Shown: positions 9,147-64,000 of the stretch, piece after piece | How the letters are laid out: the number at the start of each line of letters is the position of its first letter | Position numbering within the stretch: the stretch's first letter is position 1 | Source of the DNA: Pocillopora damicornis | Lineage: Eukaryota | Assembly (NCBI RefSeq): GCF_003704095.1 | Contig: NW_020847750.1 | Location: 1 to 64,000 of the forward strand | DNA: 64,000 nucleotides | Direction of reading: 5' to 3' | Made by a program: the position numbers and the translations under genes | Notes under the pieces: generated by a model | Seen by the model: only the letters and a program-made list of their open reading frames with translations | Told to the model about the DNA's origin: nothing | Databases searched by the model: none

Positions 9147-9328
9147 TTGAACCAAACATGTCATGCTTTTGAAATGGTTGAACGTCACTGAGGAAGCTTT
9201 CATATTAATTATCAATACATATAAGTAAGTGTGGTTTAAGAGATCGTGGCTGAGCAGATGCTAATAAGACGAAATATCTCTCGTTGCATTCATCGGTATC
9301 CTGCAAGAAAGGAAACGACTGCAGAACG

Positions 9329-24723: not shown

Positions 24724-24823
24724 NNNNNNNNNNNNNNNNNNNNNNNNNNNNNNNNNNNNNNNNNNNNNNNNNNNNNNNNNNNNNNNNNNNNNNNNNNNNN
24801 NNNNNNNNNNNNNNNNNNNNNNN

Positions 24824-26331: not shown

Positions 26332-29330
26332 TCAATTTTTTTACTACCAGTTCATAGCCTTTCAGGTCAGTTGCACTGTGTGATATAGCTATCATCACTT
26401 TTCCGTGGAATTCTTTCATGTCTTTAGAAGTCGATGGCCGTTCATTCAGGGAAAGCTCTACAACACTGCTTACTATGATCTCATTTGGTCCAAGAGATGG
26501 TGATCGGATTCTTGGACTCCATAATGAGCATATGACCTCCGTAGGTTTCCTCACAGCACGGCATGCAAATGAAAAACAACCAGGAAGCTCTTTTAACATT
26601 TTTACCTCTCCTCTCTCTGTGATCGTTTCTCTGAAAATTTTTAGATCCTGTTGTCAGACTTGAGTTAAAGAGTGAAAATAATACTATGGACGGAAATACA
26701 AAAAAACAGCCAGGCTAGTTATTCAATCGATGGCCATTATTAACGAAAGCACATGTCACTCGTAACTCGGGAAAAACCCAAAGATTGAATTTGCAGAGAG
26801 CCGACCTTAAAATATATCTAATATCCTCAGTTTTCACTTCGTAATTACATCATAAGCAAACATACTTACTTGAAAATCTCCCTCTTAATCTCTGTCTTGG
26901 AAAATAGTCGAGTGTTCAGAGCTGAAGCTCAAACAGAGAGAAATATCAAAATCAAAACAAAACTATTATTAACTGTGAGCAATTAGAACGAATTCCGGTT
27001 GCAGCGACCTTACCGGTAATTAAGCCAAGGGTTGCTTTTATTGCCTTTTTGGTGCTTATGTTATGTGGCATAACTAAAAAGTGATCAGTTCATTAATTAG
27101 GTTACCGGTAGTGTTTCAGCTTGATCCGGGTCAGTTGAAGATCTTAGCAAGAGAGGATCGCCCAATATTAGCAAGAAATGTGAATGTGTTTCTCGCGAAA
27201 AGTCTGCAATAATCTGCAAGAGACACCTAAGAATCCTCAACCTATCGAATTACCGAGTTTGCGCCCTGAATACAAATTATCATATACTTAAGAACTTAAG
27301 CCGCCACAACAACCGTGTATGTCAGTTGTACCGCAAGCGTTGAACTGAATGCTCCGATCATTTGCATTGCTTGATGAGTGTGATCACCTTTTGATCGCAC
27401 GAAACAGATAAGCTGAAATAAAACGATAAATCTCTCATGAAGCCTTCAACTATTAAATCATCACAGAGACTGCTCCTCTAAGATTAGAGTGATCGTTGGA
27501 CTTTCAGAGAGTTATTCAGTCCCAAGACCGCCCTTTTAGAATTCTCACAATTGCATGTCAAACGACCTATTTTTGTGTCGCCAGTCGCTTCCCTGAACAC
27601 CACTCAACGTTTAAGATCAACCCTTCAGAAAAAAAACAAGATTTGTCGGTGATTTTATACTGTAGGTAGAATATGCACACGCAATTTTGCGCTTAGAAAT
27701 CGCAGAAATAAATTACTTGTGTTCGATTTAGTTATAGCCCTTATTTAGATTAGTTTTGTTATTAATAATTAATTTAGCTCAATTGGATCAGTAACCGAAC
27801 TTGAAGAAAATGAATTGTCCAATTATGTTCGATTCACCGTAAAGTTCGAATGCCTAAATACCAAGACTTACTCTTCTACTTAATACATCGATAGTAAAAC
27901 TCACCCATTTCATTTTCTGTCACCTTTACACTAACAGGGCAAATAAGAAGTCTGTCACCACTAATTTTAACTTCAATGCTGTAGGTACCTGGCACCTTCG
28001 GCGTAAAATGTATTTCAAGCTTCCCATCTTTTTTGTTGCTAATAGCCAAATCCGCCACTTCCGGTGCAGGTTCAATCAATACTTCTACAAGACCCTTTAG
28101 GTCTGGCTGGTTAATTGTGTCACCCTCGGTCGTTTTTGGACATAATGTCATCACTGCCTTTACGCCAGCCTCAAGAGTTTCATCCAGTCCTTCCAAAGTG
28201 GTCAGACTCAGATCTATCTCCTCAGTTAAGATGTAACCCAGTCTTTGGCCCGCCTCACTTGCTGCCGTAAATTTAATATAAGAGGTTTCGCGATGTTGTG
28301 GAACTTCAGTTTCGCAAAGATCTTTAACTCTTTTATACAAATTTTTTCGATTTTGCATAATGTATGAACTTGAACCATACAGAACCACTTTTTCCACAAA
28401 GTCAACAGTTCGATCCACTTGTTCCACCAGTGATTTCGCTTTTCTTTTAGCATCAACAATTTTCTCAAGTCTTATAACGTGCGTATTCTCAATGTATTCT
28501 AGATATTCGACTGCCTCACGCTGACGTTCTTGACTTTCTACAATTATTTGTTGACATTTCCCAACTTCTCGTAAGGCTCTACGTTTGTCGACTGTAGCGT
28601 GGATTGTCGACGCTGGAGTTGTTTCGTCGCATTTGGACAGGGTTAGCATTTTTTCGTTTGCAATGTTTATTTTCGCTTGTTCAATTGCGTGTGTTGTAAC
28701 GAAGGATGCATGCGTTTCAAGCGCTCGTTCTCGAATGCCTGAAATTATTTCTTCGGCTGCCTCACAGACTCCATGATTAGCGATTTCAGCATTGATTTCT
28801 AACTCTTCGATACTTTTTTCAAACTGCTCGATCGCATCGATCAACACGTTTTCTTTTCCTCTAGCTAGCTCAATGTTCGTAATAATTCTCTCCACTTCGA
28901 TGTCAGCTGCCTCGTCGAGAGCCAAAAGTTCATGTTCCTGGTATGTCGTCACGGAGCAGAAAAAGCAAATGCAAGACTGACAATTCAGGCAGAAATAGAT
29001 TGTTGTTGACTGCAAGTGGTAATTCTCCAAGCAGAAATTTTCGCGCTTCAATAAGACCTCGTAAAGTTCTGGTCGAATCTCCGCTGCTGGTATGATTGTG
29101 TGTCCTTCAAACGTAACTTGAAGAGTCTCGTGTGCAGTCCAACAGCTGGGGCACATAAACATTTTACAGTCGACGCAATAACAACCTTTGAAGCTGTTTA
29201 TATTACAATTATCACATGTAATACTAACACCATCGTTACTTTTCTGAAAAGCAGAAGTACTCGTTAACCTCTCTGGGAAGTCGGCCGCTACTCTCTCCCT
29301 CCGAGCTTTAACTTCTTCCACTCGAGGCAT
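26332..29330 (-). CDS. RING-less TRIM-like protein (B-box1, degenerate B-box2, coiled coil, filamin Ig) spliced to a ZU5-like domain. Exons 29330-27905, 26921-26870, 26630-(gap at 26331)
   Basis: CDNC..YCVDC..MCPSC..AH...H; filamin DGKLEIHFTPKVPGTYSIEVKISG. Donor atgg|gtgagt (phase 1), 52-nt exon (1 to 2), then ttttcag|a gaa acg in frame with ITERGEV...PSLGPNEIIVSSVVELS...VMIAISHSA...YELVVK (ZU5-like). Confidence 0.8.
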
Positions 29331-30398
29331 TTCGAGGGGAACTTTTAGGCGTACATTTCATTAAAATCGCCACAAAATAAATGAAAACAATAACATAGCA
29401 AATATTCTTAGTTCCCTAAAGAGCCCCAGAAAAAGCAGGTAAATAGGTATTGAGCGTCTTTCCTCAGAAACTTATTTTCTAAGAAATCCCTGGTGCCCTG
29501 AGGAGAGTGGCCATCTGATCTGCCGCGCGAGATTGGTAGCGAAGTTAGACACGAAGGTGACGACTATCGAGAAAGTCGCTCGAAAGTCATCTCGCCCGAA
29601 GCTCTGTCGCCCTAAACTAGAGTTATGTCGTCCGAGATTAAGTAAAGCTACGTCAGCGTTATATATTAGGCTTTGAATCTTATTTTCAAGAAACGTACAA
29701 TTAAGGATGTGTGCATTTATTTTAAATTTTCTGAGTGATCGTTAAACTATGAGTACAAGTTTTCAAAATCCTTGTCAGGCAACCAGAGAACACAGGTTCT
29801 TAGATGCCAGATATTGTTTACATTATCATTAAATTTTCTATCACCATGGTTTCCCTTTTGGAGAGGAGCATTATCCCGAGGCTTGTTGACGTTAGCAGGC
29901 GACAACTCAGCATAACTTGGACAGATCTTTAGGAATTTCATGGATTTAACCACGCAGAAGAAGTTGCATTATTGTTAGACATTCAAAGCTTTCAAAGAAT
30001 GGAACAACAAAGGTGTCTATATAAGGAGAATGATCGGGGCAAGGAATATTCGAATTTGTTTCCATGAGACCCATTGTTTTATAAACTAGACAAGCAGACG
30101 TCTGCATTGTTCTGAAAAATTTGATGAAAGGTACCTTTTCATCCTTTCTCAATGCCTGCTCGAATTTGTCAATCCTCTCCCCCTGAATATCTTTTGAGCA
30201 TCCTGTGCTCTAGGGTCTTGCTAAGATGCTACATGTCATTGATTGGCCGTAGCCGGAGATCTGACTACGAAAACACGGGCAGCGGTATATCCTTGTAGGT
30301 TAATACTCAACATGGATGCAATGGCGGCCTCTGATGCGCCTATATGAGTTACCAGTAATGAATCTTCTCAATGGTTTTGCCAGGATTGTGATACTCAG

Positions 30399-44908: not shown

Positions 44909-45940
44909 TCATGCAGGTGGTTTCAAAGATTTATCACATTGCGTGTGCTTGTCAGCCACTGCGTTATTTACCACGCTCTCGATTCGTATGGCTCGCAATG
45001 ATTGGGGTGAAGCTCCTTGATTTCTGACCGAGCATACCCCTCGTAGCGTGTCCATAATGGCGTTTCGAATGTGCCTCATCTTCCAGCAGTATATCACAGG
45101 ATTCAAAGTCGAGTTGAGATATGCAAGGGTTAGTGACCAAACAAAAAATCCCTTCAAGGGAGTGGTACGGCCATAGATTATCATAGACGACGTGGAGATG
45201 AAAAAAGGCGCATAACACGCCCAAAATACGACATATACGTAAAATATGCCCACAGTAGTTTTAAGGACGTTCGCAAAATTGGCCCCCTCTCCATTATACG
45301 CTTCTTGTCGCACTTCGCCACCTTCGATATCATTTTTAAGTCGACGCACGGTTAGATAAATCTTACTGTAAGCAATCGTTGTAAGAAAAAGACCAACGAG
45401 GCCTCCTACACACATGATTAGGTACTTCACATGGGGCGAAAGCCAGAGTACTATTACAGAAACACTCACACTCGCCAACCATAAAGAAGCCACTGAGGTA
45501 ACAACACGCTTGTGAGTCACAAGCTCCTGGTATCTGAGATGAAGATGGATTGCTAGGAATCTGTCTGCACTTACAGCCAACACGCCCAAGAAAGACGTTA
45601 TCGTGAACATGCCGATTATCGCATCGAAAACCATGTACGTGCTACAATTGGGGATAGCTTTGGATAATCCCTTGACAAGGAGCCAGGTGTAGAAAGGCTG
45701 ACTCAATAAGCCCACACCAACATCTGATGCAGCAAGACTCAGAAGGAGAGTTTCCAGAGTCTTCGGTAAACATGACGTCTTTTTAATCGCATAGATTGCT
45801 GCAATGTTCATCATGACTGCAGTGTGGCAGAGCAAAATGTTGAACACACAATTAGTGATGTACGTCGAACGAAGATCTTCAACTTCGGTAATTGAGGGGA
45901 AAAACTGCAACACCAATATATCACAAGACAAATTCTGCAT
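44909..45940 (-). CDS. Intronless orphan class A GPCR, 343 aa
   Basis: LAASD in TM2, DRF in TM3, CYAP in TM6, NSTLNPVIYCW in TM7; same broad family as 9329-10273. Confidence 0.92.
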   Translation of the reverse strand: MQNLSCDILVLQFFPSITEVEDLRSTYITNCVFNILLCHTAVMMNIAAIYAIKKTSCLPKTLETLLLSLAASDVGVGLLSQPFYTWLLVKGLSKAIPNCSTYMVFDAIIGMFTITSFLGVLAVSADRFLAIHLHLRYQELVTHKRVVTSVASLWLASVSVSVIVLWLSPHVKYLIMCVGGLVGLFLTTIAYSKIYLTVRRLKNDIEGGEVRQEAYNGEGANFANVLKTTVGIFYVYVVFWACYAPFFISTSSMIIYGRTTPLKGFFVWSLTLAYLNSTLNPVIYCWKMRHIRNAIMDTLRGVCSVRNQGASPQSLRAIRIESVVNNAVADKHTQCDKSLKPPA

Positions 45941-47374
45941 GACACGTACGAACTCCTGCTGGCCTTGCGTTTTTAAAAAATTTTTCCACGCACAGTTATG
46001 TAGTTTTTGACATCTGAAAAATTGACGACTTCGCGTGCTTAAATCGATTCTTTTGATGGAGAGAATTAAACGTGAGGATTTTCTACATTTAACTTGGTTT
46101 AACCGGCTAATTCAGTCACTTCTAGAGCTGCATCATTGTTTCAGCTTTTCAGCTGTCCTGTTGGTTTACATTAAGATTAAGAAAATGTTAATGAATAGTT
46201 TTGCGTCAGCAATAAAATTAAAATTTATAAAAACAACAAAAGGATGTGAATGTCGATTGACTTAAAAAGGTTAATTCAAAAAATAATCCCACATGACGCT
46301 GTAAACGTGTATGTAACTGTATGGAAAATATACAAAAAGAAACCTCCACATGCAGCAAAATTTTAGAGTGTCTTTAACAGCATTAAAACAATATGTTAAT
46401 AGTAAATGGTTAATTAAGCTAAGCATGTTCCAATATGTTAATCAATAAGAATGACAGAAACAATTCACCTGCTCAAACAACTCCTAACTGAACTAGACGC
46501 ATATCTGCGTGTACTCGGGCTTCTTCTTTTCAGAGAAACCTGATTGTTATGTTCAAGTGAAGATTATGTTTGTTGCCTCTGATGTTAATGGCAAAACTGC
46601 AACAACTGATATAGAGCTGTGAAAGTGTTTTATACTCACGAGACAAGATCGGATTTGCATATTTAATACTTTAAAAAAAACCTATAATACTTCATTCTTG
46701 CTCGTAAAGCTAGGGCGAGACGTAATTGCTTCTTCTCTCGCTAATCATTTTACGCGGATTTTCTTTTAACGTCGCATAGTTTGAGTTTAGATTTTTTTTT
46801 TTTCAAAAATTAATTGTAGCTTTTAAATTACTCTGTTTCCACGTGTCTTTACTTAAGAAGAATAAAAATGAATGAAAAGACGTTTCCATGTCATTTTTAG
46901 GTTATTCACATCCAGAGATAGTTTGACCCTCTGGCTCGGACACCTTGGATAACCTAGTCCCTTGAATGGACAATGAAATGTATTGTAATGTATGATTACC
47001 CACCCGGCGAAGTTATAATCTTGCACTTTATAATTTGAAACTCATGTATTTCAACTTTAATTTATTACCTAGGAAAACGGTAATTTTAACTAATATTTAA
47101 ATTTTAAACAGGATCTGACTCCAGCATAATATTAGAAGAACAAAACAAGATCTTGTGTAAATACCTGAAACAGGTATTTTCGTTAATAGATACTAATTAC
47201 ATCTGTTAACATCTTCGTAAAACAATGTATTAAAAAAGTCAAGTGTCAGTGTCATATGTGACAGCAAATTAAAGACCTCGAGAAACAGTAATCACTGTGC
47301 CAAGGTGTCGTCATCAATAGATATTAAATCTGCACACATCAAATTCGTAGACATGAATCATGAAATCTTTTATT

Positions 47375-47640
47375 TTAACGTATCTGAAACAAATATAGTG
47401 TCATATGCGAAAAGTATATACTGTATTGCTTGAATGGTTTGCTGGTGGAGAGTTTTTTACAAACTGTAGTGTCGTCATTCTCATTGTGTGTCATATCTGT
47501 CAGTTGTACATCAATATTTCCACAATCAATTTGAATATCTTTATATAAGGGGTTATCAGCTTTTAACCAATTAAGCGCTGTTATTATGAACTTAGGTCTA
47601 AAAAGTTGAAAATAAACATGTCCCTTGAGCTGAAGTTTGC
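47375..47640 (-). mobile_element. Helitron RepHel coding fragment (DUF6570-like region)
   Basis: Not on the ORF track; manual translation gives KLQLKGHVYFQLFRPKFIITALNWLKADNPLYKDIQIDC, resembling the RP....AL.WLK.NN.LY.DI motif upstream of the Helitron Rep domain. Confidence 0.7.
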
Positions 47641-47651
47641 TTATTTACAGG

Positions 47652-48300
47652 ATGCACGTCGCCTTTAGAGTCATCCTTTTTTTGGGTTTTCTGTTTCTAA
47701 TGGACAGATCTTGTTTTCACCAAAAATAAATAAATTTAAGTCCTTATCCTTAGCGCCGGACTAACTAGAATTAGAGCAGCGAAAACGCCACCGAACAGAA
47801 ATATAATGACCGACATTCTGATTATCAAGAGAGAGAATTTTACTGGAGGCAGAATACATGCCTCGAAATTTGCAAACAACACGATTACAGCGGGAGCCAA
47901 CTGGATTCATTTGGTAGATGACGACGAAACCAAACGTCTTGTAGAAGGAAAAGATGCATTAAAATTTTCGTACAATCATAAGTAACTCGTAAGACATTAT
48001 CGTGAGGTAAGTCGAGTCAATATCACCAAAATTACGATTTCTAAGAGAGAGACTGAGTGTATCATGCGCAGAAGGGGAACCTTTCTGTGCTATTTGATAG
48101 ACTTTCTTGGAGTCGGGGCTATCTATTGATCATCGCATATTGTTGTTTGTTTTAAAGAAAAAGGCTCTTTCCATGAATTTTACAGGGATGATGAAGGCCA
48201 AGGTATCACTGATTTTGCAGTTCTCAGGAGTTTAATGATTAAGTGGAATTAGAAAATTGAATATAAACAAATTTTCTGACGTGCCAGCGCGTATTGGTTT
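47652..48300 (+). pseudogene. Polyamine oxidase pseudogene: exon 1 (47652-48006) plus truncated exon 2 (from 48186)
   Basis: MHVAFRVILFLGFLFLMDRS then a frameshift and stop; FAD motif degraded to SAGLTR; GGRIH and GANWIH retained; gtgag|gtaag donor; exon 2 remnant DDEGQGITDFAVL breaks down. Confidence 0.85.
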
Positions 48301-49079: not shown

Positions 49080-51812
49080 TTAAATACAGAGACATGAGCA
49101 AAAATAGGAAAGCAACAAGATTCCTAATGAAGACATCTTCACCGAAGTTGCCTCACTCTTCGGTTTTCGTGGCTTACTGGTAGGCTCAGACGGGGAGATC
49201 TGTTCAGCGATTCTTTTCCCTTTCTCGTCTCCACTTAGATAAGCTCCTTGCATGTAGCCGAACCACTCATCGTGTGTCGCTTCGCCAGCAAAGTACAGTC
49301 GTCCCAGGTTTTTTCCAATGTTCTTCCAGTCTTCAGAAGTCATACCCACCACTGGCTCTGAAAATGCGCCTTGTGTCAGCGGTTCCTTTGACCAGCGGTG
49401 ATAGTATATATCTGGGGAAAATACCGTGAAAATACACTAATTTCATGTTGAAAAACACAGCTGTAGAACGTTCAGCATGCGCAAGAAGATCCATCAATTT
49501 TGTCTAGCCGTGCATTAATTTTCCGCGCAAAAAAGAAAGCAAAGGGAAAAACCGTTGTCACGCAAAATTTCTTTACAATTTTGCAGTGTAGCTTCACCGA
49601 AAAAGTGAAGTGCTTTTTAAACGCCGTAACTTACTTGCTTGTGTGGTATTTAGACTTTTAAGACAACTCGGGACTAATACAGTTTGACTGCCTCTCGGCC
49701 GTTTCAGCGTTCGCACTGTGTAATATCTCCAGCCACACTGTCATTGTGCTGACAGTAAAGATTAATTCTTGTTGCAAAAGAGCTGACCTCAGCCAATAAG
49801 ACTAGCCACCTTCTACCAGTGTAGGCATTTAAGTGTTGTTTTTTTGTCTTATAATCCTGAACTTCTTAGTTTCTATTGAACCAAATACTGTAAAAAAACA
49901 GGCAAGCAGTGATTTTGAATGATCACAGACTATAGCCCTTACCCGTAGCTTCAGGGACGCCCTCTCCATAAACCTGCCGCAGTATTTTCATGATCTCTGC
50001 CTTTGTTTCATTAAATGATTGCCCCTCAATCCTTCGTCCTTCGGTTCCAGTTACCATAATTTCTAACATTCCGCTGTCAACAGAATATACCCCGGGTCTT
50101 GACAGGTCCTGCCACACAGGGAAACGCCCGCGCTCTTTGGAAGCGTACAAAATATATTCGCGATCATCCCAGAACTTTTTTGGAAATTTCAGGTAAATTT
50201 TTGTGTATATCGATAATGGGTTTTTATAAATGGCCTCTTTTTTCCAATCTGGAAGGGCTGGCTCGAAAGTAACCAAGTCGCTGGCCAGAACTCCGGAGCT
50301 GAATGTACAAAGAGCGTAATCTGCCTGGTAACTCCAACCATCGGAGGTCTGAGCTTCAACCGAATCCGGGTTTAGCTTGATTTTTGTGACAGTTTTGCCC
50401 AATAAAGTCTTCTTTTCCAGTGGCTTATACAGATCTTCAAACATAGACCACACTCCTCGCTCATCAGTCACCAAGAACTCTTCTCCAGGAACAAACAAAT
50501 TGTAGAAAGAAACTTCTTCTGGAGGTTTTGCGAACTCATAGTCTAATTCAAAATATTCAATGGCTCTTTCTATGGGCCGTTTTCCTTCCCATCCCATCAG
50601 TTGAAGACCAACGCGGGCAGGCATGTCGGGAAAGTTCTTTGTTCTTCTTTCATCTTGGAAGTCTTCAATTTTGTTTGTCACTTTGTCATCAAACTCATGT
50701 AAAACAGCAAAATCGGTGACATCTCTGCCATCTTCGTCCCTACAAAATTCATGAGAAATGACGGTAAAAAGTTCAAAGTATAACCAAATGTCAACGCAAA
50801 TTTTCATCTCTCTCTGTTTAATGGTCTCCACGAGGAAAAAAAAATTGCAGTGAGTCACTCAGAAACTCTTATAGATTATGGCATTAAAACGTTTGAGTAA
50901 TTAGTTTGGTAGCTACTTAGTTGGTTAGTTTGCTGGTTTGCCTTGCTTTGTCAGGTATTGTCTTTTAGAGTAGTGCTTCCAGACTCATGACTGGAGCTTA
51001 CATATTATCCATACACAGTTAAGTTTATCTATTCAATCGTCTCGGAGCGTGGAGCGCGGAGCGTGGAGCGCGGGGCGTGGAGCGCGGGGCGCGGAGCGCG
51101 GGGCGCGGGGGACAGCTAGGTGCCGATCAATATCTCAAGTCTTGGGTTCATGTAAAGGGTAAAGAAATCGAGGCTATCAAGCCTTTGATTTACATCTTAC
51201 TAAGATAAGCAGACGGCTACAGAGTTCTCTTTGTTAAGATGGAAAAAGTTTAGCTTTAATGCTTTGTTGGTTTTCTTTTTTTTACAAGTAATTTTTTTAC
51301 CTAAAAGCAGTGTAAAATCCTATATCTAGAAAGTCATGTTCGCAATGTTTTTTAAATTAATAGGTTGTCCTTTTTCATAATTCAGTTCCAGCCCTTCCTA
51401 TTTTGCAATTTTTCTAAAATTTTCAGCTTAATCGAAGTTAAAGCAACCTATCTTACCTCACAATAATGTTTGAATAATTATATTTGTGAACACGAACACC
51501 TCTCGCTTCCTTTCGTTCCACCAATGGTTTGGTGTCATCTTCATTCATAAAGTGAATCCAGTTTGCTCCCGTTTCAATCGTGTAGTTTGCAAATTTCACA
51601 GCATGTATTCTACCCCCAGTGTAATTCATCCCTTCCAGAATCAGAATGTCGGTGATGTTTCTGTCCAGTAGCGTTTTCGCTGCTTTAATTCCAGCGAGTC
51701 CAGCGCCAAGAATAAGGACTTTAGTTTTGCTTTGTTTTATTGGTGAAGACAAAGATCTGTCCACCAGAAACAGAAAACTCACAAGCAGGATGATCTTAAT
51801 CATGATGTACAT
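49080..51812 (-). CDS. Secreted, probably GPI-anchored FAD-dependent polyamine oxidase, copy A. Exons 51812-51457, 50739-49943, 49411-49080; 494 aa
   Basis: Signal peptide; VLILGAGLAG, GGRIH, GANWIH, DYEFAKPP, YTKIYLKFPKKFW, RRIEGQS..ETKAEIM, LYFAGEAT, GYMQGAYLSG; hydrophobic C-terminus SSLGILLLSYFCSCLCI; phases 2 and 1 verified. Confidence 0.92.
51044..51111. repeat. GC-rich heptamer microsatellite (GGRGCGY)x9 in intron 1 of oxidase copy A
   Basis: Directly visible. Confidence 0.9.
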
Positions 51813-52600
51813 TCTGTAAATGAACAAAGAAACTGATGATCAAAAGAGGATAAATAGCTCCTGAGGATTATTAAACTGGAGAAATATCCTCCTATCACAA
51901 TTCCGGAAAGAAATGTAGCATGTATTTTCTCTGCGTCACGAGGTTGCTTAAGCGTTGTCTATTTGGTGTTTTATTTTGTTTACAAAGTATGTTAATTATA
52001 TTCTGGACATTTCTATACCAAAGTCTGATTCTCTTTTGAAGTTTTAAAGAACCTTTCAGTGGCATTTTGATTAAAATTTCTGACTGCCGGCAATTTAGTC
52101 CATTCAAGACCGAGCAAGGCAATTTGATCAGGGGCGTAGTGACATCAACTGAGCGGTGTTGTAGTATGCACAAGCTTTCTCTTTTAAAAAAGCAAATCAA
52201 AGTTTGGAATCGCTTTACTTTTCTAATTAAACATCTAATATTCTTAAGAAGTTTGAAAGAAGGTTTCGGTGGAAATTCTGTCAAAATTTCTGACTGCGGG
52301 CCATTTAGTCAAATTGAGACCGTTCCCGGCTGCCGGGCATTTAGTCGTAGCGAGTTTTTTATGCCTGCTCAACCCCTGACAATGGGTCCTGCGCAGAGGT
52401 CAAAACTTAATTGGCTTTCACTGTTGAGAGTCCTTATGGCAAAATATTTCCACTCCTGACAGACTGTGAGAAAAAATGAAACTCCGAGATTCCGGGAGCA
52501 TAATGTGGAGGACAAGACTTATGACGCACGCCAAATTTCAGCGAGTTTCGCCTTCTAGAGATGATCAATTTTTGGAGAGTCATTTTTCCATCACCACGAC

Positions 52601-53032
52601 GCATTTTACAGCTTTTCGAAAAGCTCTCTCGAGCGTGATGGGGCGAATGAGTACTCCATGCAAAGAACCGAAACCATAACAAATGCAAATATCTTTTCTG
52701 AATTTTCACAAACTTCGATAAACAGCTATTATCAAACTCATGAAAGTGGAAGCAAGGCTGATCTGTAACTTCATCAGAAACTTCCTCTACATCTTTTTTT
52801 AGGTTAAAAGTGCATTTTAAAGCTTTTCGAAGCGGCTCTCTCGAGTGTGATGGGGCGAAGGAGTACTTCATGCGTAAAGAACCTAAAACCATAACAAATG
52901 CAAATGTATTTTTAACTGTTCTGGATTTTCGCAAACTTCGATTAACAGCTAATATCAAACTAATGAAAAGTGGAAATAAGACTGATATGTAACTCCATGA
53001 GGAACTTCCGCTTAATCTTTTATAGGTTAAAA
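52601..53032. repeat. Tandem duplication (about 211 bp period) in the oxidase intergenic spacer
   Basis: gcatttta.agcttttcgaa..gctctctcgag.gtgatggggcgaa.gagtac...aacttcga..aacagct...taggttaaaa occurs twice. Confidence 0.85.
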
Positions 53033-54262
53033 CTAAATATACCCCAAAAGCATTGATTTCAACACATTCGTTACTGACCCACCTAAGGCGCCGACCTTTA
53101 CGTGATCTGATCGAGATAGTTTTCTGTCGTAGCATAACAACATGAAAATAGTATGATTGTGTTAATGCTTCAACCAACTTTTGTACCTTACTCACAATAG
53201 TCTCATCCGTAGCGGGTTTGATTCATCACCTGAGTTTTTCACTGGACGAACTGACCGACCTTAAGTGTGTTTTTAATCAAAACATGTTTTGTGCGTGGTC
53301 ACTTATTGACCTCCATTTGATTTACATTAGAGCTTCACTCAATCAAGAGGACCTCGAGTCCCCCAAGCCAGCCACATTTGTCGACTTAGCTTCTTATCCA
53401 GAACTCAGTGATCAACAAGATTTCGTACGCCTAGACGTCTAAAATTTTGTGAATTTACGCTTTGATGTTTTTAAACGCATAACAGCGAAACCACCCCAAA
53501 GTCCGTAAGCTTTTGCATATAAATCCGTATAAGTATTTTAATTCTTTCAGGAGAAGAGAGATATAAGTAAGGGCAAAGCATAATTTACTTACTTTAGTTT
53601 GACGCGTCTCGATCTTTCAAATTTTCTTCTCTAAGTTTGCGATGTTTTCATGCAGATCATTCTGAAAATTATGCAAATTACGTAAGACACTCATCGAGGT
53701 AAGTGCAAAACTTGGCATGTTTAAGGTTTAGGAAAGCGTTACCTTCGTGGGTCCGGCGTCGCGGGTGAAAATTTGCGCGAGCAAAAAGAGGAAAATCGCA
53801 ATATAATTAGCGTTTTAGCCTCCATTTGGTGCAAAAATATTTTTGGATATATGTCTACGACAATATTTGTTTTGAGAGGCAAATAGTTCACCGAGAAGAA
53901 AACGGTAAGCCTCGAGACAACTTTTTCTTCAAAGTTGATACAGGAATATATCTATCACAGGCTTTTTAATAGGAAGGATTTTGTAAAATGAACCTGTGTG
54001 ATGGAATTGCAAAAGGCGTTTACTTTTATTCTACTTCAATGTCTGCTTAGTTACTTTCGAATTTAACTGCACCAGAGTACACTACTACATCTAGTGGTTC
54101 CTCTATGCAACACGAATGTTTCATCAAAGTTACAGTTATGTCACTCTATCAGTCAATAAGGGCTGCTCTAGGGCTATCAAGGTTAATAACAAATCTCTTG
54201 CCGGCTTGATGAATTGTTTTACTTCCACATGATTATAAACCAAAGAGGGAGCAACAAGATTC

Positions 54263-55735
54263 CTACTGAAGACACTTTGGTGGGGTTGCCTCACTCTTTG
54301 GTTTTCCCGGTTTTCTGGAAGATTCACTTGGAGAGATGTTCTCAGCGATCATGTTCCCTTTCTTGTCACCGGTCAGGTAAGCACCTTGCATATAGCCGCA
54401 CCAGTCTTCGCTCGTCGCTTCGCCAGCAAAGTACAGACGTCCCAGGTTTTTTCCAATGTTCTCCCAGTCTTCAGAAGTCATACCCACCACTGGTTCTGCA
54501 TATGCACCTTGCGTCAGCGGCTCCTTTGACCATCGCCGATAATAGATATCTGAAGAAAATATACAATAGTTATGTCAAGGAGAGTACTTGCATCATGATG
54601 TGGGAGACCCGCAGACTCTAATGGTAAATATCTTTGTGCAGTGAATAAAACTAGCCAGAACTCAGTCTTTTAGGGTGACATTCCGATTGGTTCGTCTTTT
54701 CTTGCTTGTTTTCAGTCTAGTTTAGTAATAATCAAGGTTTTCAAGGCCACAATTTCGTGTCTTAATTTTGTTGCTTTCTGTAGGGATAATTATCGGCAAA
54801 GGAAGAGACATACATTTATTGAAACTATCACGAAATTATCTCCCCACCTGACAATATTTTTTTTGACTACGTTCAGAATGAACGATATGATATGCTGATT
54901 TCTGGTTAAAAGGAACCCTGCAAAGCTGAACTATTGCCCTTTACCTGTCGCTTCAGGGATGCCATTCCCGTAGATCTCTCTCAACATTCCCATGATCTCC
55001 GCCTTTGTTTCATCAAATGATTGCCCCTCAATCCTTCGTCCTTGAGTCCCTGTCACAGTAATCAGTAACATCCCACTCGAAACGGGAAAGATCCCAGGTC
55101 TTGACAGGTCCTGCCACACAGGGAAACGTCCGCGCTCTTTGGAAGCGTACAGAATATATTCGTGATCATCCCAGAACTTTTTTGGAAATTTTAGAAAAAT
55201 TTTTGTGTAAGGCGACATCGGGTTTTTATAAATGGCCTCTTTTTTCCAATCAGGAAGGGCTGGCTCGAAAGTAACCAAGTTGCTGGCCAGAACTCCGGAG
55301 CTAAATGTACAAAGGGCATAATCTGCCTGGTAACTCCATCCATCGGAGGTTTGTACTTCAACGGAATCCACATTATGCTTGATCTTTGTGATTAATTTGC
55401 TCAGCAAAGTCTTCGCTTCCAATGGCTTGTAAAGGTCTTCGTACATGGACCATACTCCTCGCCCATCAGCGATGAAAAAGTCTTTTCCGCGCTCAAACAT
55501 GTTGTAAAAGGAAACCTCCTCTGGAGGCCTCGCAACCTCGAAATCGAAGTTGAAATATTCAATAACGCTTTTTATGGGTTGTTCAGCTGACCATCCCATC
55601 ATCTGCATACCAACACGGGCGGGGAAGTCTGGCTGGCCCTTCCTTTTTAGTTGGTAGTCTTCAATTTTGTGCTCGATTTTGTCATAAAACTCACGCAGAA
55701 CTGCAAAATCAGTGATATCGTTTCCTGCTTCGTCT
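54263..55735 (-). CDS. Polyamine oxidase copy B, exons 2-3 (55735-54945, 54549-54263); C-terminal hydrophobic tail out of frame
   Basis: Paralogous to copy A (YTKIFLKFPKKFW, LYFAGEAT, GYMQGAYLTG); ends EATPPKCLQ*; exon 1 lies beyond the gap at 55847. Confidence 0.88.
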
Positions 55736-55946
55736 CTACAAAAAATAAAAACAATTGTAGGTTTGCAAGAGCAACAACTTTTGAACGTTTTATCGGCGTA
55801 CCTTGGAGGGATACTCATCTCAAAATGGATATTCGAATTCAGTTTCNNNNNNNNNNNNNNNNNNNNNNNNNNNNNNNNNNNNNNNNNNNNNNNNNNNNNN
55901 NNNNNNNNNNNNNNNNNNNNNNNNNNNNNNNNNNNNNNNNNNNNNN

Positions 55947-56007
55947 CAAAGTGTCGTTAGTAGGAATATTGTTGCTCCCTCTTTGCCTTATAATCGTGTG
56001 GAAGTAA
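55947..56007 (+). CDS. 3' end of another polyamine oxidase paralog (hydrophobic tail only)
   Basis: KVSLVGILLLPLCLIIVWK*, followed by sequence homologous to the copy B 3' flank (reverse complement of about 54100-54280). Confidence 0.65.
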
Positions 56008-59000
56008 ACAATTCATCAAGCCGACAAGAGATTTGTTATTAGCCGTGATAGCCTTGGAGCAGCCCTTACTGGCTGATAGAGTGGCAAAACTGTAACTTTG
56101 ATGAAACATTTGTGTTGCATATAGGANNNNNNNNNNNNNNNNNNNNNNNNNNNNNNNNNNNNNNNNNNNNNNNNNNNNNNNNNNNNNNNNNNNNNNNNNN
56201 NNNNNNNNNNNNNNNNNNNNNNNNNNNNNNNNNNNNGGGTAAGGTGCAGTAAAATTCGAAAGTAATTAAGCAGGCTTTGAATAGAGAATGCTTCATTTTT
56301 GTGGGTCGCCCCTGTACTTATTATCTGCAGATAGTCCTGTGCAAGTACTAACTGCTCTCNNNNNNNNNNNNNNNNNNNNNNNNNNNNNNNNNNNNNNNNN
56401 NNNNNNNNNNNNNNNNNNNNNNNNNNNNNNNNNNNNNNNNNNNNNNNNNNNNNNNNNNNNNNNNNNNNNNNNNNNNNNNNNNNNNNNNNNNNNNNNNNNN
56501 NNNNNNNNNNNNNNNNNNNNNNNNNNNNNNNNNNNNNNNNNNNNNNNNNNNNNNNNNNNNNNNNNNNNNNNNNNNNNNNNNNNNNNNNNNNNNNNNNNNN
56601 NNNNNNNNNNNNNNNNNNNNNNNNNNNNNNNNNNNNNNNNNNNNNNNNNNNNNNNNNNNNNNNNNNNNNNNNNNNNNNNNNNNGGGTACTCACCAGGTTG
56701 CTATGTCAACCCCAACACCATGTTTTACTTAATGTGACAAAAAAGGCCTACAAAGGGGGAGAGGAGGTCACAGGAACCTCAGGACCCCCCTCCTCAAGCN
56801 NNNNNNNNNNNNNNNNNNNNNNNNNNNNNNNNNNNNNNNNNNNNNNNNNNNNNNNNNNNNNNNNNNNNNNNNNNNNNNNNNNNNNNNNNNNNNNNNNNNN
56901 NNNNNNNNNNNNNNNNNNNNAGGGCAAAAAACAACTCCTGCGTCAAACTTGAAGAAAAAGTTATTCCGAGACTCACCGTTTTCTTCCTATTAAAAAGCCT
57001 GTGATAGATATATTCCTGTGTCAGACTTGAAGGCGAAGTTCTATCGAGGCTCACCGTTTTCTTCTCGGTAAACTNNNNNNNNNNCAAATCAAATGTTGTT
57101 GAGGACAAATATCCGAGAATATTTTCGCGCCAAATGGAAACTAAACGAAAATGATATTGCGATTTTCCCCTTTCTTACTCACGCCATTTTTGANNNNNNN
57201 NNNTTTACCCATGACGCCGGACCCACGAAGATATTGCTCTCTCAAAGCTTAAACATGCTAAGTTTTACACTTACCTCGATGAGTGTCTTACGCAATTTGC
57301 TTAATTTCCAGAATAATCTGCATGAAAACATCGCAAAGTTAGAGAAAAAACTTTGAAAGATCGAGACGCATCAAACTAAAGTAAGTAAATTGTGCTTTAC
57401 CCTTACCCTTAAACCATTCGTCTCCTGAAAGAATTAAAATACTTATACAGATTTATNNNNNNNNNNNNNNNNNNNNNNNNNNNNNNNNNNNNNNNNNNNN
57501 NNNNNNNNNNNNNNNNNNNNNNNNNNNNNNNNNNNNNNNNNNNNNNNNNNNNNNNNNNNNNNNNNNNNNNNNNNNNNNNNNNNNNNNNNNNNNNNNNNNN
57601 NNNNNNNNNNNNNNNNNNNNNNNNNNNNNNNNNNNNNNNNNNNNNNNNNNNNNNNNNNNNNNNNNNNNNNNNNNNNNNNNNNNNNNNNNNNNNNCAAATT
57701 GAAGTCATTAAGTGACCACCTACAAAACATGTTTTGATTAGAAACACACTCAAGGTCGGTCAGTTCGTCCAGTAAAAACTCAGGTGATGAATCAAACCCG
57801 CTACGGATGAGACTNNNNNNNNNNAGGTACAAAAATGGTTGAAGCATTAACACAAACATGCTATTTTCAAGTTGTTAAGCTTACGACAGAAAAACTATCT
57901 CGATCAGATCACGTAAAGGTCGGCGTCTTAGGTGGATCAGTAATGAATGTATAGAAATCAATACTTTTGGGGCATATGCACTTTTAACCTATAAAAAGAT
58001 GCAGAGGAAGTTTCTGATGGAGTTACAGATCAGTCNNNNNNNNNNTTTTCATTAGTTTAGTTTATTATCTGTTTATCGTAGTTTGCGAAAATCCGGAAAG
58101 GTTAAAAATACATTTTCATTTGTCATGGTTTCGATTCCTTACGCATGGAGTACTCCTTCGCCCCATCACGCTCGCGAGAGCTTTTCGAAAAGCTTTAAAA
58201 TGCGTCGTGGTGATGGNNNNNNNNNNNNCCAAAAATTGATCATCTCTAGCGGGCGAAACTCGCTGAAATTTGGCCTGCGATATAAGACTTGTCCTCCATA
58301 TCATGCTCCCGGAATCCCGGAGTTTCAATTTTTTTCTCACAGTCTGTCATATTTTGCNNNNNNNNNNNTCAACAGTGGAAGCCAATCAAGTTTTGACTTC
58401 TGCGCAGGACGCCATTGTCAGGGACGGAGATGGCATAAATTATTCGCTGCGACTACCGTAATTTCCGGCCGTTTACCCGCACGGCCGATTACCCGCACCG
58501 GCCGATTNNNNNNNNNNNNNNNNNNNNNNNNNNNNNNNNNNNNNNNNNNNNNNNNNNNNNNNNNNNNNNNNNNNNNNNNNNNNNNNNNNNNNNNNNNNNN
58601 NNNNNNNNNNNNNNNNNNNNNNNNNNNNNNNNNNNNNNNNNNNNNNNNNNNNNNNNNNNNNNNNNNNNNNNNNNNNNNNNNNNNNNNNNNNNNNNNNNNN
58701 NNNNNNNNNNNNNNNNNNNNNNACTTTTTGGTGGCAAAAACGTGACATTAAAGTTAAAACATTTCAGTCTTTTTAGAGTTGTCTGATCTAACTTGAAAGC
58801 TTCTTTGTCGAGTTTAAAGGTCAAAGAAATTCAGACGCGTGCANNNNNNNNNNNNNNNNNNNNNNNNNNNNNNNNNNNNNNNNNNNNNNNNNNNNNNNNN
58901 NNNNNNNNNNNNNNNNNNNNNNNNNNNNNNNNNNNNNNNNNNNGACGACTCTACGCCTCTGATCAAACTGCCGGGCTCGGTCTTGAGTAGACTTTATTCC

Positions 59001-59269
59001 CGACAGTCGGAAATTTTAATCAAAATGCCACTGAAAGGCTCTTTCAAACTTCGAAAGAGTATCAGATTTTTGTATAGAAATGTCCAGAATATAATTCACT
59101 TACTTTGTAAGCAAAATAAAGCACCAAATAGACAACGCTTAAGCAACCTCGTGACGCAGAGAAAATACATGTTACATTTTTTCCAGATAAGAGGATATTT
59201 CTCCAGTTTAATAATCTTCAGGAGCTAGTTATCCACTTCTGATTATTAGTTTCTTTGTTCATCCACAGA

Positions 59270-59625
59270 ATGTACATCATGTTTAAGATCATCCTGCTTG
59301 TGAATTTTCTGTTTCTGGTGGACAGATCTTTGTCTTCACCAATAAAACAAAACAAAACTAAAGTCCTTATCCTTGGTGCCGGACTTTCTGGAATTAAAGC
59401 CGCGAAGACGCTACTGGACAGAAACATCACCGACATTCTGATTCTTGAGGGAAAGAATTACACTGGGGGTAGAATACATGCCATCGAGTTTGCGAACTAC
59501 TCGATTGAAACAGGAGCGAACTGGATTCATTTCGTAAATGACGGAGAAACCAAACCTATCGTGGATCGAAGGGACGCAAAAAAAATGCAAGGTCTTACCT
59601 CTAATTACTCAGACATATTGGTGAG
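59270..59625 (+). CDS. Polyamine oxidase coding exon 1 (signal peptide + FAD-binding start), probably the missing exon 1 of copy B on a flipped contig
   Basis: MYIMFKIILLVNFLFLVDRSLS...VLILGAGLSG...GGRIH...GANWIH; 356 nt with a phase-2 donor, identical in length to copy A exon 1. Confidence 0.88.
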
Positions 59626-60170
59626 GTAAGACGATTGGAATAAGTGGAGATGTGCATAACTAGATTTCTTTGAAAGGGCTTATACACAGAAGGAGTACAA
59701 ACTTCTTGTGAGGTCTCTAGCCACCTCTTCCCCTTCCTATGATAACTCGTAGCAGATAAAAGTCCGAAATGTGTGGCGGCTTTTAAAAATTGCAAGTAAC
59801 ACAGTTTCCATATGTTTACCGTCCAGGTGAACATGAACAAACTACGATTGCATTTATTTAATTTGCTTCAGCCATTTTAAATTTGAAAGAACTGACAACG
59901 TACTTCTTCACGACCACACCCCTGTCAAGTCTTCGTAGACCGTACCATCAAATTATCCTTTAGTCTATTTCCCTCAATTTCGTTTCCAGGACTACTCTTG
60001 TTACTAGTAATTTTTTTTTTCTCAGAAAGCGACTTTAAAATCGAGTGGAAACAAGAATGCTGGACATCAGNNNNNNNNNNNNNNNNNNNNNNNNNNNNNN
60101 NNNNNNNNNNNNNNNNNNNNNNNNNNNNNNNNNNNNNNNNNNNNNNNNNNNNNNNNNNNNNNNNNNNNNN

Positions 60171-61600
60171 ATTCTTAAGAAGTTTGAAAGAACGTTTCGG
60201 TGGAAATTCTGTCAAAATTTCTGACTGCGGGCCATTTAGTCTAATTGAGACCATGCCCGGCTGCCGGGCATTTAGTCGTAGCGAGTAATTTATGCCTGCT
60301 CAATCCCTGACAATGGGTCCTGCGCAGAAGTCAAAACTTAATTGACTTCTAAAGTTGAGAGTCCTTATGGCAAAATGTTTCCACTCCTGACAGACTATGA
60401 GAAAAAAGAAAAAAAATGAAACGCCGGGATTCCGGGAGCATGATGTGTAGGACAGGACATGTAGCACGCCAAATTTCAGCGAATTTCGCCCGCTAGAGTT
60501 GATCAAATTTTGGAGAGTCATTTTTCCATCACCATGACGCATTTTAAAGCTTTTCGAGAAGCTCTCTCGAGCGTGATGGGACGAATGAGTACTCCATGCA
60601 AAGAACCGAAACCATAACAAATGAAAATATCTTTTCTGAATTTTCACAAACTTCGATAAACAGCTAATATCAAACTCATGAAAAGTGGAAGCAAGGCTGA
60701 TCTGTAACTTCGTCAGAAACTTCCTCTACATCTTTTTTAGGTTAAAAGTGCATTTTAAAGCTTTTCGAAGCTGCTCTCTCGAGTGTGATGGGGCGAAGGA
60801 GTACTCCATGCGTAAAGAACCGAAATCATAAAAAGTGCAAATGTATTTTTAACTGTCCTGGATTTTCGCAAACTTCGATAAACAGCTAATATCAAACTAA
60901 TGAAAAGTGGAAGTAAGACTGATATGTAACTCCATGAGGAACTTCCTCTTAATCTTTTATAGGTTAAAACTAAATATACCCCAAAAGCACTGATTTCAAC
61001 ACATTCGTTACTGACCCACCTAAGACCCCGACCTTTACGTGATCTTATCGAGATAGTTTTTCTGTCGTAAGCATAACAACATGAAAATAGTATGATTGTG
61101 TTAATGCTTCAACCATTTTTGTACCTTACTCACAATAGTCTCATCCGTAGCGGGTTTGATTCATCACCTGAGTTTTTCACTGGACGAACTGACCGACCTT
61201 AGGTGTGTTTTTAGTCAAAACATGTTTTGTAGGTGGTCACTTATTGACCTCCATTTGATTTACATTAGAGCATCACTCACCCAAGAGGACCTCGAGTTCC
61301 CCCAAGCCAGCCACATTTGTCGACTTAGCTTCTTATCCAGAACTCAGTGATCAGCAAGATTTCGTCCACCTAGACGTCTAGAACTTTGTGAATTTACGCT
61401 TTGATGTTTTTAAACGCATAACAGCGAAACCACCCCAAAGTCCGTTAGCTTTTGCATATAAATCCGTATAAGTATTTTAATTCTTTCAGGAGAAGAGAGA
61501 TTTAAGTAAGGGCAAAGCACAATTTACTTACTTTAGTTTGACGCGTCACGATCCTTCAAAGTTTCTTCTCTAAGTTTGTGATGTTTTCATGCAGATCATC
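60171..61600 (+). repeat. Near-identical direct copy of spacer 52240-53660 (further array unit or uncollapsed haplotype)
   Basis: Colinear match by eye, including the 211-bp internal duplication. Confidence 0.9.
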
Positions 61601-61754
61601 TATCACAGGCTTTTTAATAGGAAGAAAATGGTGAGTCTCGGAAGAGCTTTTTCTTTAAGTTTGACGCAGGAATTGTTTTTTTGCCCTTCCTCTAGCATAG
61701 ACTCAGTAAATAATGGGGGATTATGATAAATCTGTAACCTTCGAAGGTTACTAG

Positions 61755-61997
61755 TGTAACGGAGAAGACAATCCGAACGCACAATATATATCACGGTTTA
61801 ATCAAATGAAGTACGTAATCAAAAGTACGAACGGAATAAGGAGATCGGTGTGAAATCGCAGATGAATAGGGCGAAGTAAAGATTGAAGATAGCGTAGTTA
61901 TGATTGATGGTAACGTTGAAGCTGAATTTGTGTGGTTCGAACTAAAAGAAAATGCAGCAGAAACTAAACTAAGAAAATATCCCTGAGAAATGTAACA
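61755..61997 (-). mobile_element. Solo LTR (243 bp), probably Gypsy-type, with a 4-bp target-site duplication
   Basis: CTAG|TGTAAC ... GTAACA|CTAG; TG..CA ends; ATTAAA about 45 nt before the 3' end on the minus strand. Confidence 0.7.
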
Positions 61998-63027
61998 CTA
62001 GCCTAATTAACAATGAAGCGATTATAAAGTGAACTGAAAGCGAAAAATAAATCGATTTACGTATCAAAGGAAAAAGGGAAATATCTTAAATGTGAAATAA
62101 AGAAAAACTTACTTTGGTCTAGCTCCTAATGATTGTAGATAAATCGCCGATAGTGGATCGTACGTGAATAGCAGACAAAGTTGGTGATGTCGACAGCAAC
62201 TTATAGCGATGAAATATGAAATGTAATATCTGGTACATGTGCTTAAATGAAACTGATTGAAATAAAAAACTTATTAAGTAATAATCATTAACCAACGAAG
62301 AAATAATAGACCGGAACAAACATAACAGAAAAGTACATAAGTTACGCGTTTCGAAACTAACAAAATCGACTCTTTAAAATGCATCAATGAGGCGAGTTTA
62401 TCAAGGGCGAGGCTTGAGGAGGAGGGTCCTNNNNNNNNNNNNNNNNNNNNNNNNNNNNNNNNNNNNNNNNNNNNNNNNNNNNNNNNNNNNNNNNNNNNNN
62501 NNNNNNNNNNNNNNNNNNNNNNNNNNNNNNNNNNNNNNNNNNNNNNNNNNNNNNNNNNNNNNNNNNNNNNNNNNNNNNNNNNNNNNNNNNNNNNNNNNNN
62601 NNNNNNNNNNNNNNNNNNNNNNNNNNNNNNNNNNNNNNNNNNNNNNNNNNNNNNNNNNNNNNNNNNNNNNNNNNNNNNNNNNNNNNNNNNNNNNNNNNNN
62701 NNNNNNNNNNNNNNNNNNNNNNNNNNNNNNNNNNNNNNNNNNNNNNNNNNNNNNNNNNNNNNNNNNNNNNNNNNNNNNNNNNNNNNNNNNNNNNNNNNNN
62801 NNNNNNNNNNNNNNNNNNNNNNNNNNNNNNNNNNNNNGACAGACGCATAAGTGACGTTCACATTAACGACATTTTGACTTTTTTTATCATATAATTAACA
62901 AATAGATTCTGTGTTGCCGTGGGATTGTTCAGTAACAGATCACAGATCACGTCAAATGTGATAAGAGCATCAGTGACATACCCCCCCTGTCCATCGATTT
63001 AGATTTAATGCCAGTAATGTTCATGCG

Positions 63028-63028
<1 letters not shown>

Positions 63029-63081
<53 letters not shown>
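63029..63081. repeat. Poly-T tract (53 nt)
   Basis: Directly visible. Confidence 0.9.
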
Positions 63082-63085
<4 letters not shown>

Positions 63086-63339
63086 ACATCACTGACACTC
63101 TCGCCTGCCCATCGTTTACTACTTTTCTGTTCTTGCCATATGTTGACGTCATGTGTGATTCTTCACTGAACAGAAGTACAGCAACATAGAATCTTTTTGT
63201 TTAGTAACATCATCACAAGCTGAGTGAAAGTGAACTCGTGGTTAATAAATATAGCTGAGAGCAGTTAGTACTTGCATAGGACTATCTGCAGGTAATAAGT
63301 ACAGGGGCGAACCACAAAAAAGAAGTAATATCTATTCAA

Positions 63340-64000
63340 AGTCTGCTTAGTTACTTTCGAATTACTCGAATTTTACTGCTACTACTATTAACCTCAATTT
63401 GATTTACACTTCATCACATCACCCCAGAGGACCATGAGTTCCCCCAAGTCACCCACGTTTGTCGACTTAGCTTTTCATTTATAACTCAATGATCAACAAG
63501 ATTTCGTGCGCCCAGACGCTTAAGTGTTTGTTAATCCACGCTTTGATGTTTTTAAACGCATAACTGCACAACCATCCCAAAATCTTTTGCNNNNNNNNNN
63601 NNNNNNNNNNNNNNNNNNNNNNNNNNNNNNNNNNNNNNNNNNNNNNNNNNNNNNNNNNNNNNNNNNNNNNNNNNNNNNNNNNNNNNNNNNCTCTTTGTTT
63701 AGTAACATAATCACATGCTGAGTGAAAGTGAACTCGTGGTTAATAAATCTAGCCGAAAGCAGTTAGTACTTTTACAGGACTATCTGCGGGTAATAAGTAC
63801 AGCGGCTTACTGTCTGCTTAATTACTTTCGAATTTTACTGCACCTTGCCCTCGTGGGCACGTAACTTTAGCCAATGGCTATCTATATATACCAAGCAAAA
63901 GCTAACAAATTCTCCCACAGAGTACACTACTACATCTAGTGGGTCCTCTATGCAACACGAATGTTTAATTAAAGTTACAGTAATGTCACTCTATCAGTCA
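63340..64000 (+). repeat. Further diverged copies of oxidase spacer and 3' flank segments
   Basis: 63425-63590 resembles 53345-53515; 63811-64000 resembles 54040-54155. Confidence 0.75.

Follow-up and report, generated by a model that had tools for sequence, protein, structure and literature searches.

The window analysed here is a stretch of 64,000 nucleotides from the coral Pocillopora damicornis (contig NW_020847750.1, positions 1 to 64,000 of the forward strand, assembly GCF_003704095.1). It contains one intact gene, called gene A below, and pieces of close copies, and these window genes are almost certainly members of Clade I of the polyamine oxidases (PAO), the group of the maize enzyme ZmPAO1. 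Our preferred explanation is that gene A encodes a flavin adenine dinucleotide (FAD)-dependent PAO that would act on the outer cell surface, lean towards back-conversion (exo) cleavage, serve polyamine turnover and descend by inheritance. We estimate the probability of this explanation as a whole at about 0.68.

Family and predicted location of the gene A product

Gene A consists of three coding exons (Table 1) separated by GT-AG introns of 717 and 531 nt, and its open frame specifies 494 amino acids. The Pfam Amino_oxidase model matched all three exons, and an NCBIfam scan returned sub-threshold FAD-motif matches only. Maize PAO (PDB 1b37) was the best solved match for each exon. With exon 2 it scored 151 bits, against 34 for LSD2, 30 for L-amino acid oxidase (LAAO) and about 20 for PAOX/SMOX; with exon 3 it scored 38 versus 29 bits, and with exon 1 it was nearly level with human SMOX (57.3 versus 56 bits). 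A full-length homologue from Oculina gave 270 bits with maize PAO, 114 with LSD2, 90 with SMOX, 78 with PAOX, 76 with MAO-B, about 68 with LAAO and 57 with Fms1. The fold was compared using the Stylophora homologue P0005 in place of the joined gene A. Its folded model (mean predicted local distance difference test 92.6) superposed on maize PAO with a Z score of 48.9 and a root-mean-square deviation of 1.9 over 427 residues, as compared with Z 42 for LSD1 and Z 39 for PAOX and Fms1. LAAO was not among the 50 fold matches listed, a listing that is no test of LAAO membership.

The active-site residues agree with this assignment. Clade I is defined by an aromatic residue at position 298 and by the Phe403/Tyr439 pair, in maize numbering (Salvi and Tavladoraki 2020, PMC7576179). 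Position 298 is Tyr in gene A and in gene B, the second copy in the window, and the 403/439 sandwich is Phe/Tyr in A and Tyr/Tyr in B. Trp60, Glu170 and Lys300 are kept in both. The stretches that the original prediction had quoted as plant-like align with maize PAO, and its statement that the Lys300 and Glu170 equivalents are kept and that His stands at the Glu62 position held as well. It had compared this His with yeast Fms1 and the animal enzymes. The residue is shared with PAOX/SMOX, but it does not point away from Clade I, since His at 62 also occurs in 1 of 36 ZmPAO1-like plant enzymes and in 4 of 29 fungal Clade I enzymes; Glu62 itself, present in 25 of the 36, is not strictly defining (PMC7576179 Table 1). 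The coral proteins further differ from maize PAO by an acid in place of Val196 and Phe in place of Gly63.

Phylogenetic trees were built in series, with FastTree on 183 rows, a quick tree on 50 rows and finally IQ-TREE (LG+C20) on 40 rows, the last omitting nine rows without taxon and one long-branched bacterial row of the 50. The sequences had been gathered from coral queries. In the 40-row tree, 13 cnidarian, five hemichordate, nine fungal and six plant rows formed one branch (100/100), so that the coral genes stood with the plant and fungal Clade I enzymes and not with a PAOX-like row from the snail Lymnaea. Membership in the animal PAOX/SMOX group (Clade II), whose members are intracellular, was rejected: the scores with the coral proteins are far lower, and the coral residue at 439 is Tyr and not the Thr of Clade II. 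LAAOs are a secreted source of H2O2 in the mucus and venom of animals and belong to the same fold family. Membership in this group was also rejected, from the low bit scores (30 versus 151 on exon 2) and the residues, the tree holding no LAAO row. The claim that these genes are closer to ZmPAO1 than to PAOX/SMOX or LAAO was thus borne out by the bit scores, the fold and the tree.

The N-terminus of the gene A protein is strongly hydrophobic (best 11-residue Kyte-Doolittle mean 3.40) and extends by 30 residues, as expected for the signal peptide predicted earlier; five N-glycosylation sequons are present. Like maize ZmPAO1, which shares this predicted export signal, the product is very likely exported. 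A cleavable signal peptide is given as the ancestral state of Clade I (PMC7576179). The coral protein adds a stalk and a hydrophobic C-terminus (2.24) that maize PAO does not have. Anchoring through glycosylphosphatidylinositol (GPI) follows a rule of small omega and omega+2 residues, a polar spacer and a terminal hydrophobic stretch without a cytosolic tail. This pattern is present in A and in all five close coral homologues examined, which share an [S/N]-x-A omega site, a 7-residue spacer and a hydrophobic run 25-28 residues from the end; gene B as assembled is without the tail. The residue pattern makes a GPI anchor on the gene A product likely, in line with the original prediction. In 7 of 17 named animal proteins a hydrophobic tail was counted, as compared with 0 of 11 from named plants and 2 of 93 from named fungi. 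Coral paralogues of a sister group (P0010, P0011, P0032 and P0036) end instead in HEEL, which we take to be an endoplasmic reticulum (ER)-retention signal, and other family members carry neither ending. The family thus appears, from these C-termini, to be sorted to the surface, to the ER and to free secretion.

Several points weigh against this reading of family and location. In a feature search of the ESM Atlas the amine oxidase subfamilies were not separated, and the first place went to a 'monoamine oxidase A' cluster, with a tie at 0.96. The tree contains no vertebrate PAOX/SMOX, AtPAO2-5, Fms1, MAO or LAAO rows, and its outgroup of seven rows comprises two LSD1-like plant sequences, three from bacteria, one from a rotifer and the Lymnaea protein. 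An approximately unbiased (AU) test did reject joining the animal Clade I rows with the Lymnaea protein (p 0.0017), but this protein is a weak proxy for Clade II, with 104 bits to PAOX and a long branch; the AU tests were chosen after the trees had been seen. Branching at the base of Clade I was not resolved by the tree, and the cnidarians fell into two groups in 200 of 200 bootstrap trees checked. Finally, the signal peptide and GPI calls were made by hydropathy and residue pattern only.

Extent of the gene cluster

The original prediction counted at least five copies or fragments and spoke of an expanded system. We could account for one provably intact gene, one probable gene and signs of a third, that is, two or three genes and not five (Table 1). 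The other pieces amount to a tail of 19 codons, an exon 1 in decay and a contig in which 6 bases are coding, and 'expanded' is an overstatement.

Table 1. PAO exons, fragments and related blocks in the window
Feature	Position	Strand	Description
Gene A exon 1	51457..51812	-	Signal peptide (predicted, about residues 1-22), Rossmann motif for FAD binding, His87 at the position of maize Glu62
Gene A exon 2	49943..50739	-	Substrate-binding region: Glu187 (Glu170), Glu206 (Val196 position), Tyr297 (Tyr298), Lys299 (Lys300)
Gene A exon 3	49080..49411	-	Aromatic pair Phe401/Tyr437; stalk rich in Ser, Pro and Lys; Ser470 as predicted GPI omega site; hydrophobic tail of 15 residues; stop
Gene B exon 2	54945..55735	-	80% DNA identity to gene A
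Gene B exon 3 as assembled	54263..54549	-	One base short near 54275-54290; stop at 54263, before the hydrophobic tail
Gene B hydrophobic tail	54219..54278	-	Intact, out of frame in the GCF_003704095.1 assembly
B-type exon 1	59270..59625	+	Intact, with signal peptide and FAD motif; orientation opposite to that of B exons 2-3; contig between 100-N gaps
Orphan tail of a further B-like copy (C)	55948..56007	+	Hydrophobic tail and stop; contig edge
Decayed exon-1 copy	47652..48006	+	Frameshift and stops; splice donor kept
Misplaced contig (island)	24824..26231	+	Upstream DNA, then, after a gap of 681 N, 6 coding bases, a splice donor and DNA resembling intron 1
Another copy of A's upstream intergenic unit	60171..64000	-	95% identity over 1416 aligned bases; leaves the window just short of the expected tail

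Exons 2 and 3 of gene B, which the original prediction had listed as a copy, are present, but the only exon 1 that matches them lies on the opposite strand and the tail is out of frame, a frameshift that had been missed. This exon 1 is probably B's own. It sits in a block with many gaps (1371 of the 4324 bases of 55847-60170 are N), in which tail, intergenic DNA, exon 1 and intron 1 recur as an inverted copy, and B would be a whole gene only if this block is mis-oriented in the assembly. The one-base shortage in exon 3 may be an error of the assembly, or else B has recently changed to a soluble form. When B is joined with this exon 1, 367 of 494 columns are identical to A. The nonsynonymous and synonymous distances between A and B (dN 0.139, dS 0.596 over 470 codons, B with the joined exon 1) show that the two genes are under purifying selection. 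The nearest named proteins are two from Stylophora pistillata, both listed on a contig of 275,729 bases. In the 40-row tree A pairs with Stylophora P0006 (86% identity, 100/100) and B branches beside that group; the A/B duplication is therefore, on this branching order, older than the split from Stylophora.

It is possible, though we hold it the less probable account, that the array is mostly an artefact of assembly, with no genes other than A and B and the remaining pieces due to haplotypes left uncollapsed and contigs put in the wrong place. Pieces are indeed bounded by 100-N gaps, and one block has the inverse orientation. The island, itself set between two such gaps, adjoins an unrelated glycosyltransferase open reading frame (ORF) where the 5' end of that frame is broken. 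Moreover, 61599 closes a block, starting at 60171, that is 95% identical to the DNA upstream of A, and the whole unit up to 64000 may be either a haplotype duplicate or the next repeat unit. Tail C, however, of which only the last 19 codons and the 3' flank remain, is 90.6% identical to that of B, and the intron-1-like DNA of the island is 86% identical to its B-type counterpart (its upstream DNA matches the exon-1 block at 59 kb at 91%). These values are low for alleles. Furthermore, the exon-2 ORFs of the protein set are of three types, one A-like (P0070, 98% to A) and two B-like (P0066, 95% to B; and the pair P0068/P0071, with 96% mutual identity and 89-90% to P0066), which fits three real genes. 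The exon-1 relic at 47652 is about 80% identical to exon 1 of A, and a tblastn search did not find exons 2-3 for it.

Several side observations were made in the same region. A pyrimidine tract followed by CAG lies immediately 5' of the start codon in all three exon-1 copies (51813-51840, minus strand; 59245-59269 and 47630-47651, plus strand), which suggests a non-coding exon upstream of exon 1. Intron 1 of gene A carries a GC-rich short tandem repeat with a 7-base unit (51040-51110), and each intergenic unit contains a direct repeat of about 210 bases with 82-84% identity (52600-53030 and 60540-60970). Local duplication of PAO genes recurs in anthozoans: three Oculina homologues lie on one 33.5-Mb sequence, and the 800-amino-acid model P0004 of Actinostola is an apparent fusion of tandem copies.

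The neighbouring genes are of coral type, with a BTB-BACK-PHR protein, two rhodopsin-family G protein-coupled receptors and a B-box/filamin protein at 1650-2966, 9254-10273, 27876-29357 and 44909-46111. Contamination was rejected on the basis of these neighbours, the spliceosomal introns and the Stylophora orthologues. The glycosyltransferase ORF beside the island (23520-24724, minus strand) matches the Pfam GT4-conflict family (family 4 glycosyltransferase in conflict systems) with 281 bits, and its 5' end runs into the 100-N gap.

Substrate, cleavage mode and role

In enzymes of this family, FAD oxidises the substrate amine and O2 reoxidises the flavin, yielding H2O2. The kept residues make it probable that the gene A product has polyamine oxidase activity. 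We propose that it enters the secretory pathway, is glycosylated, and would stay at the outer cell surface through a GPI anchor attached near Ser470. There it would oxidise extracellular spermine, thermospermine or spermidine at a secondary amine, passing electrons through FAD to O2 and releasing H2O2 and an aminoaldehyde; Lys299 may position a water at flavin N5, as Lys300 does in maize PAO (PMC7576179). Enzymes of P. damicornis make spermidine, spermine and thermospermine (PMC12803844), so that substrates exist in the lineage. The likeliest role would be extracellular polyamine turnover at epithelial surfaces, with a local peroxide by-product that may serve defence.

The mode of cleavage was evaluated from positions 62 and 196. 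Corals pair His with an acid where maize has Glu62/Val196. The acid maps, through the Lymnaea protein, to Asp211 of mouse PAOX, which contacts His64 (PMC6407594), and SMOX also has His at the first position (PMC9355956). Because of this resemblance to the His64-Asp211 pair, back-conversion seems slightly likelier than the terminal (endo) cleavage of maize. Among 266 rows scoring at least 300 bits to the A3 profile (264 of 304 collected proteins plus A and B, a few probably outside Clade I), an acid (Asp or Glu) stands at 196 in 57 of the 75 ungapped rows with His62, as compared with 9 of 26 rows with Glu62 and 25 of 128 with Gln62. Three points count the other way: this tally ignores kinship, the mapping to Asp211 is indirect, and AtPAO1-like Clade I enzymes work in the exo mode with Ala at 62 (PMC7576179), so that residue 62 does not fix the cleavage mode.

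A first alternative, in line with the original prediction, has the same enzyme at the same location. In it, maize-type endo cleavage would yield 1,3-diaminopropane, an aminobutanal and H2O2, and the peroxide would serve in mucus for wound response or against microbes. The Clade I scaffold with its Phe403/Tyr439 pair agrees with that model, as does the endo mode of the extracellular plant members (PMC7576179). An Anemonia viridis PAO is listed as 1.83-fold higher in algae-free animals, in a list that also holds peroxidasin, the Hv1 channel and complement C3-2 (Ganot et al. 2011, PMC3141003 Table 1). This cnidarian protein is entered as secreted (from the signal peptide of its Nematostella orthologue) and bears 'Hyd.' in the transmembrane column. 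It is, however, a table row without clade assignment, GPI claim or assay, likened here by description and not by sequence, and may be another paralogue. With the His/acid pair in place of Glu62 and an entrance loop shorter than in maize, we regard the endo and defence model as rather unlikely. Mucus or wound data on a cnidarian PAO were not found in the literature searched, and the functions originally proposed (mucus defence, wound response and symbiont control) are not supported by this analysis.

A second alternative is that a Clade I-derived surface oxidase or dehydrogenase handles a different amine, for example a dietary or algal long-chain amine, in gut-cavity nutrition or detoxification. 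The loop from Glu170 to Asp201 has 24 residues in the coral proteins and 31 in plants, 7 fewer; the start of peptide A (maize 174-182), typical of the ZmPAO1-like subgroup, still aligns. The conserved Gly63 is replaced by Phe and Asn405 by Glu. Together with the shorter loop (183-192), these replacements may have shaped a pocket for another amine and so tell against a plain polyamine oxidase. Some paralogues have moreover lost the catalytic Lys300 (Oculina P0007 has Thr and Dendronephthya P0013 Asn) and are possibly inactive or dehydrogenase-like, judging from that position. In recovering bleached Montipora a 'polyamine oxidase (MPAO)' rises, which was read as nitrogen salvage (bioRxiv 10.1101/2024.04.02.587798). 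However, A and B keep Trp60, the acid, the lysine and the aromatic residues of the maize site, and the coral lineage makes suitable polyamines, and we consider the other-amine alternative doubtful. The Anemonia and Montipora rises both fit feeding or immunity, and neither sequence was compared with gene A.

Descent and significance

Named matches place homologues in nine other anthozoan genera (Stylophora, Oculina, Acropora, Porites, Desmophyllum, Actinia, Exaiptasia, Actinostola and Dendronephthya) and in three genera of hemichordates, the acorn worms (Ptychodera, Glandiceps and Saccoglossus). Given this range, inheritance with later loss would fit better than transfer from fungi. The gene would then come from an early eukaryote through the cnidarian-bilaterian ancestor, with loss in the animals sampled so far and a local duplication in pocilloporid corals. 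No other animal phylum appeared among the named Clade I-like matches listed (the best 120 of 163 and of 143). Desmophyllum and Dendronephthya are corals without algal symbionts, and homologues in these and in hemichordates argue against an origin specific to symbiosis.

Horizontal transfer from a fungus, an alga or another eukaryote is quite improbable. In its favour, the listed range is patchy (Anthozoa and Hemichordata only), the animal rows do not form one branch in the best tree, and many close library matches, which could include donors, carry no taxon name (representatives being the best 150 of 493 at E 1e-30 or better). Against it, plants and fungi each form one branch (100/99) without an animal row, nesting of the main anthozoan group inside the fungi was rejected (AU p 0.0003), and a single clade of all animal Clade I rows was not (p 0.255). 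Since hexacorals, octocorals and three genera of acorn worms all have the gene, a transfer would have to predate the cnidarian-bilaterian split or to have happened several times. The fungal Clade I enzymes share the branch of the coral genes, and most have signal peptides (23 of 29, PMC7576179); they differ by mostly Gln62/Asn196 in the aligned rows and by a longer loop. Plant PAO genes have 8 coding introns, as compared with 2 in the coral (PMC7576179).

A prokaryotic donor was considered and rejected. Bacterial and archaeal genomes were scanned for two strict peptide patterns, which reach close relatives only, and 1 of 48 candidate stretches was confirmed. This is a contig filed in a bacterial genome bin (L001, 1-2800) with a coral-type PAO gene; since it has the same two intron positions, it is host DNA in a prokaryote collection.

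Part of this picture was known before. The enzyme class is established, these proteins already carry the label 'polyamine oxidase' in databases, a table of 2011 lists a secreted cnidarian PAO (PMC3141003), and a cluster of two or three genes is ordinary. Polticelli 2012 (PMC3517346) treats SMO/APAO homologues including one from Nematostella, with the plant-type group unmentioned in the passages available, and the Tethya genome preprint (10.1101/120998) mentions that sponges, cnidarians and lancelets share a clade of amine oxidases without a known function. This may be the animal Clade I group. A paper placing animal PAOs in Clade I was not found in the literature searched, which was mostly without subscription journals. 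The conserved GPI-like tail, the HEEL paralogues and the His62/acid-196 pair are features new here.

The coral, anemone and acorn-worm members overturn the published loss of Clade I in animals, a point missed by the original prediction. Salvi and Tavladoraki (PMC7576179) describe animals as having one PAO clade, from a table whose 18 metazoan rows are all vertebrates, insects or amphioxus, with no cnidarian or hemichordate. A broader scenario, which we offer as speculative, is that polyamine catabolism in early animals included a third arm outside the cell (Clade I), lost in vertebrates and insects, and that anthozoans diversified it into forms that are GPI-anchored, retained in the ER or soluble, with PAOX-like exo chemistry; in stony corals, with their independently evolved thermospermine synthesis, it might form a plant-like surface circuit from thermospermine or spermine to peroxide, acting on microbes or algal symbionts.

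The combination of a His/acid pair with a maize-type scaffold provides a natural test of what determines endo versus exo cleavage. Extracellular reactive oxygen is tied to coral bleaching and immunity. If the surface enzyme is real, it would be a peroxide source independent of NADPH, and as such relevant to coral redox biology.

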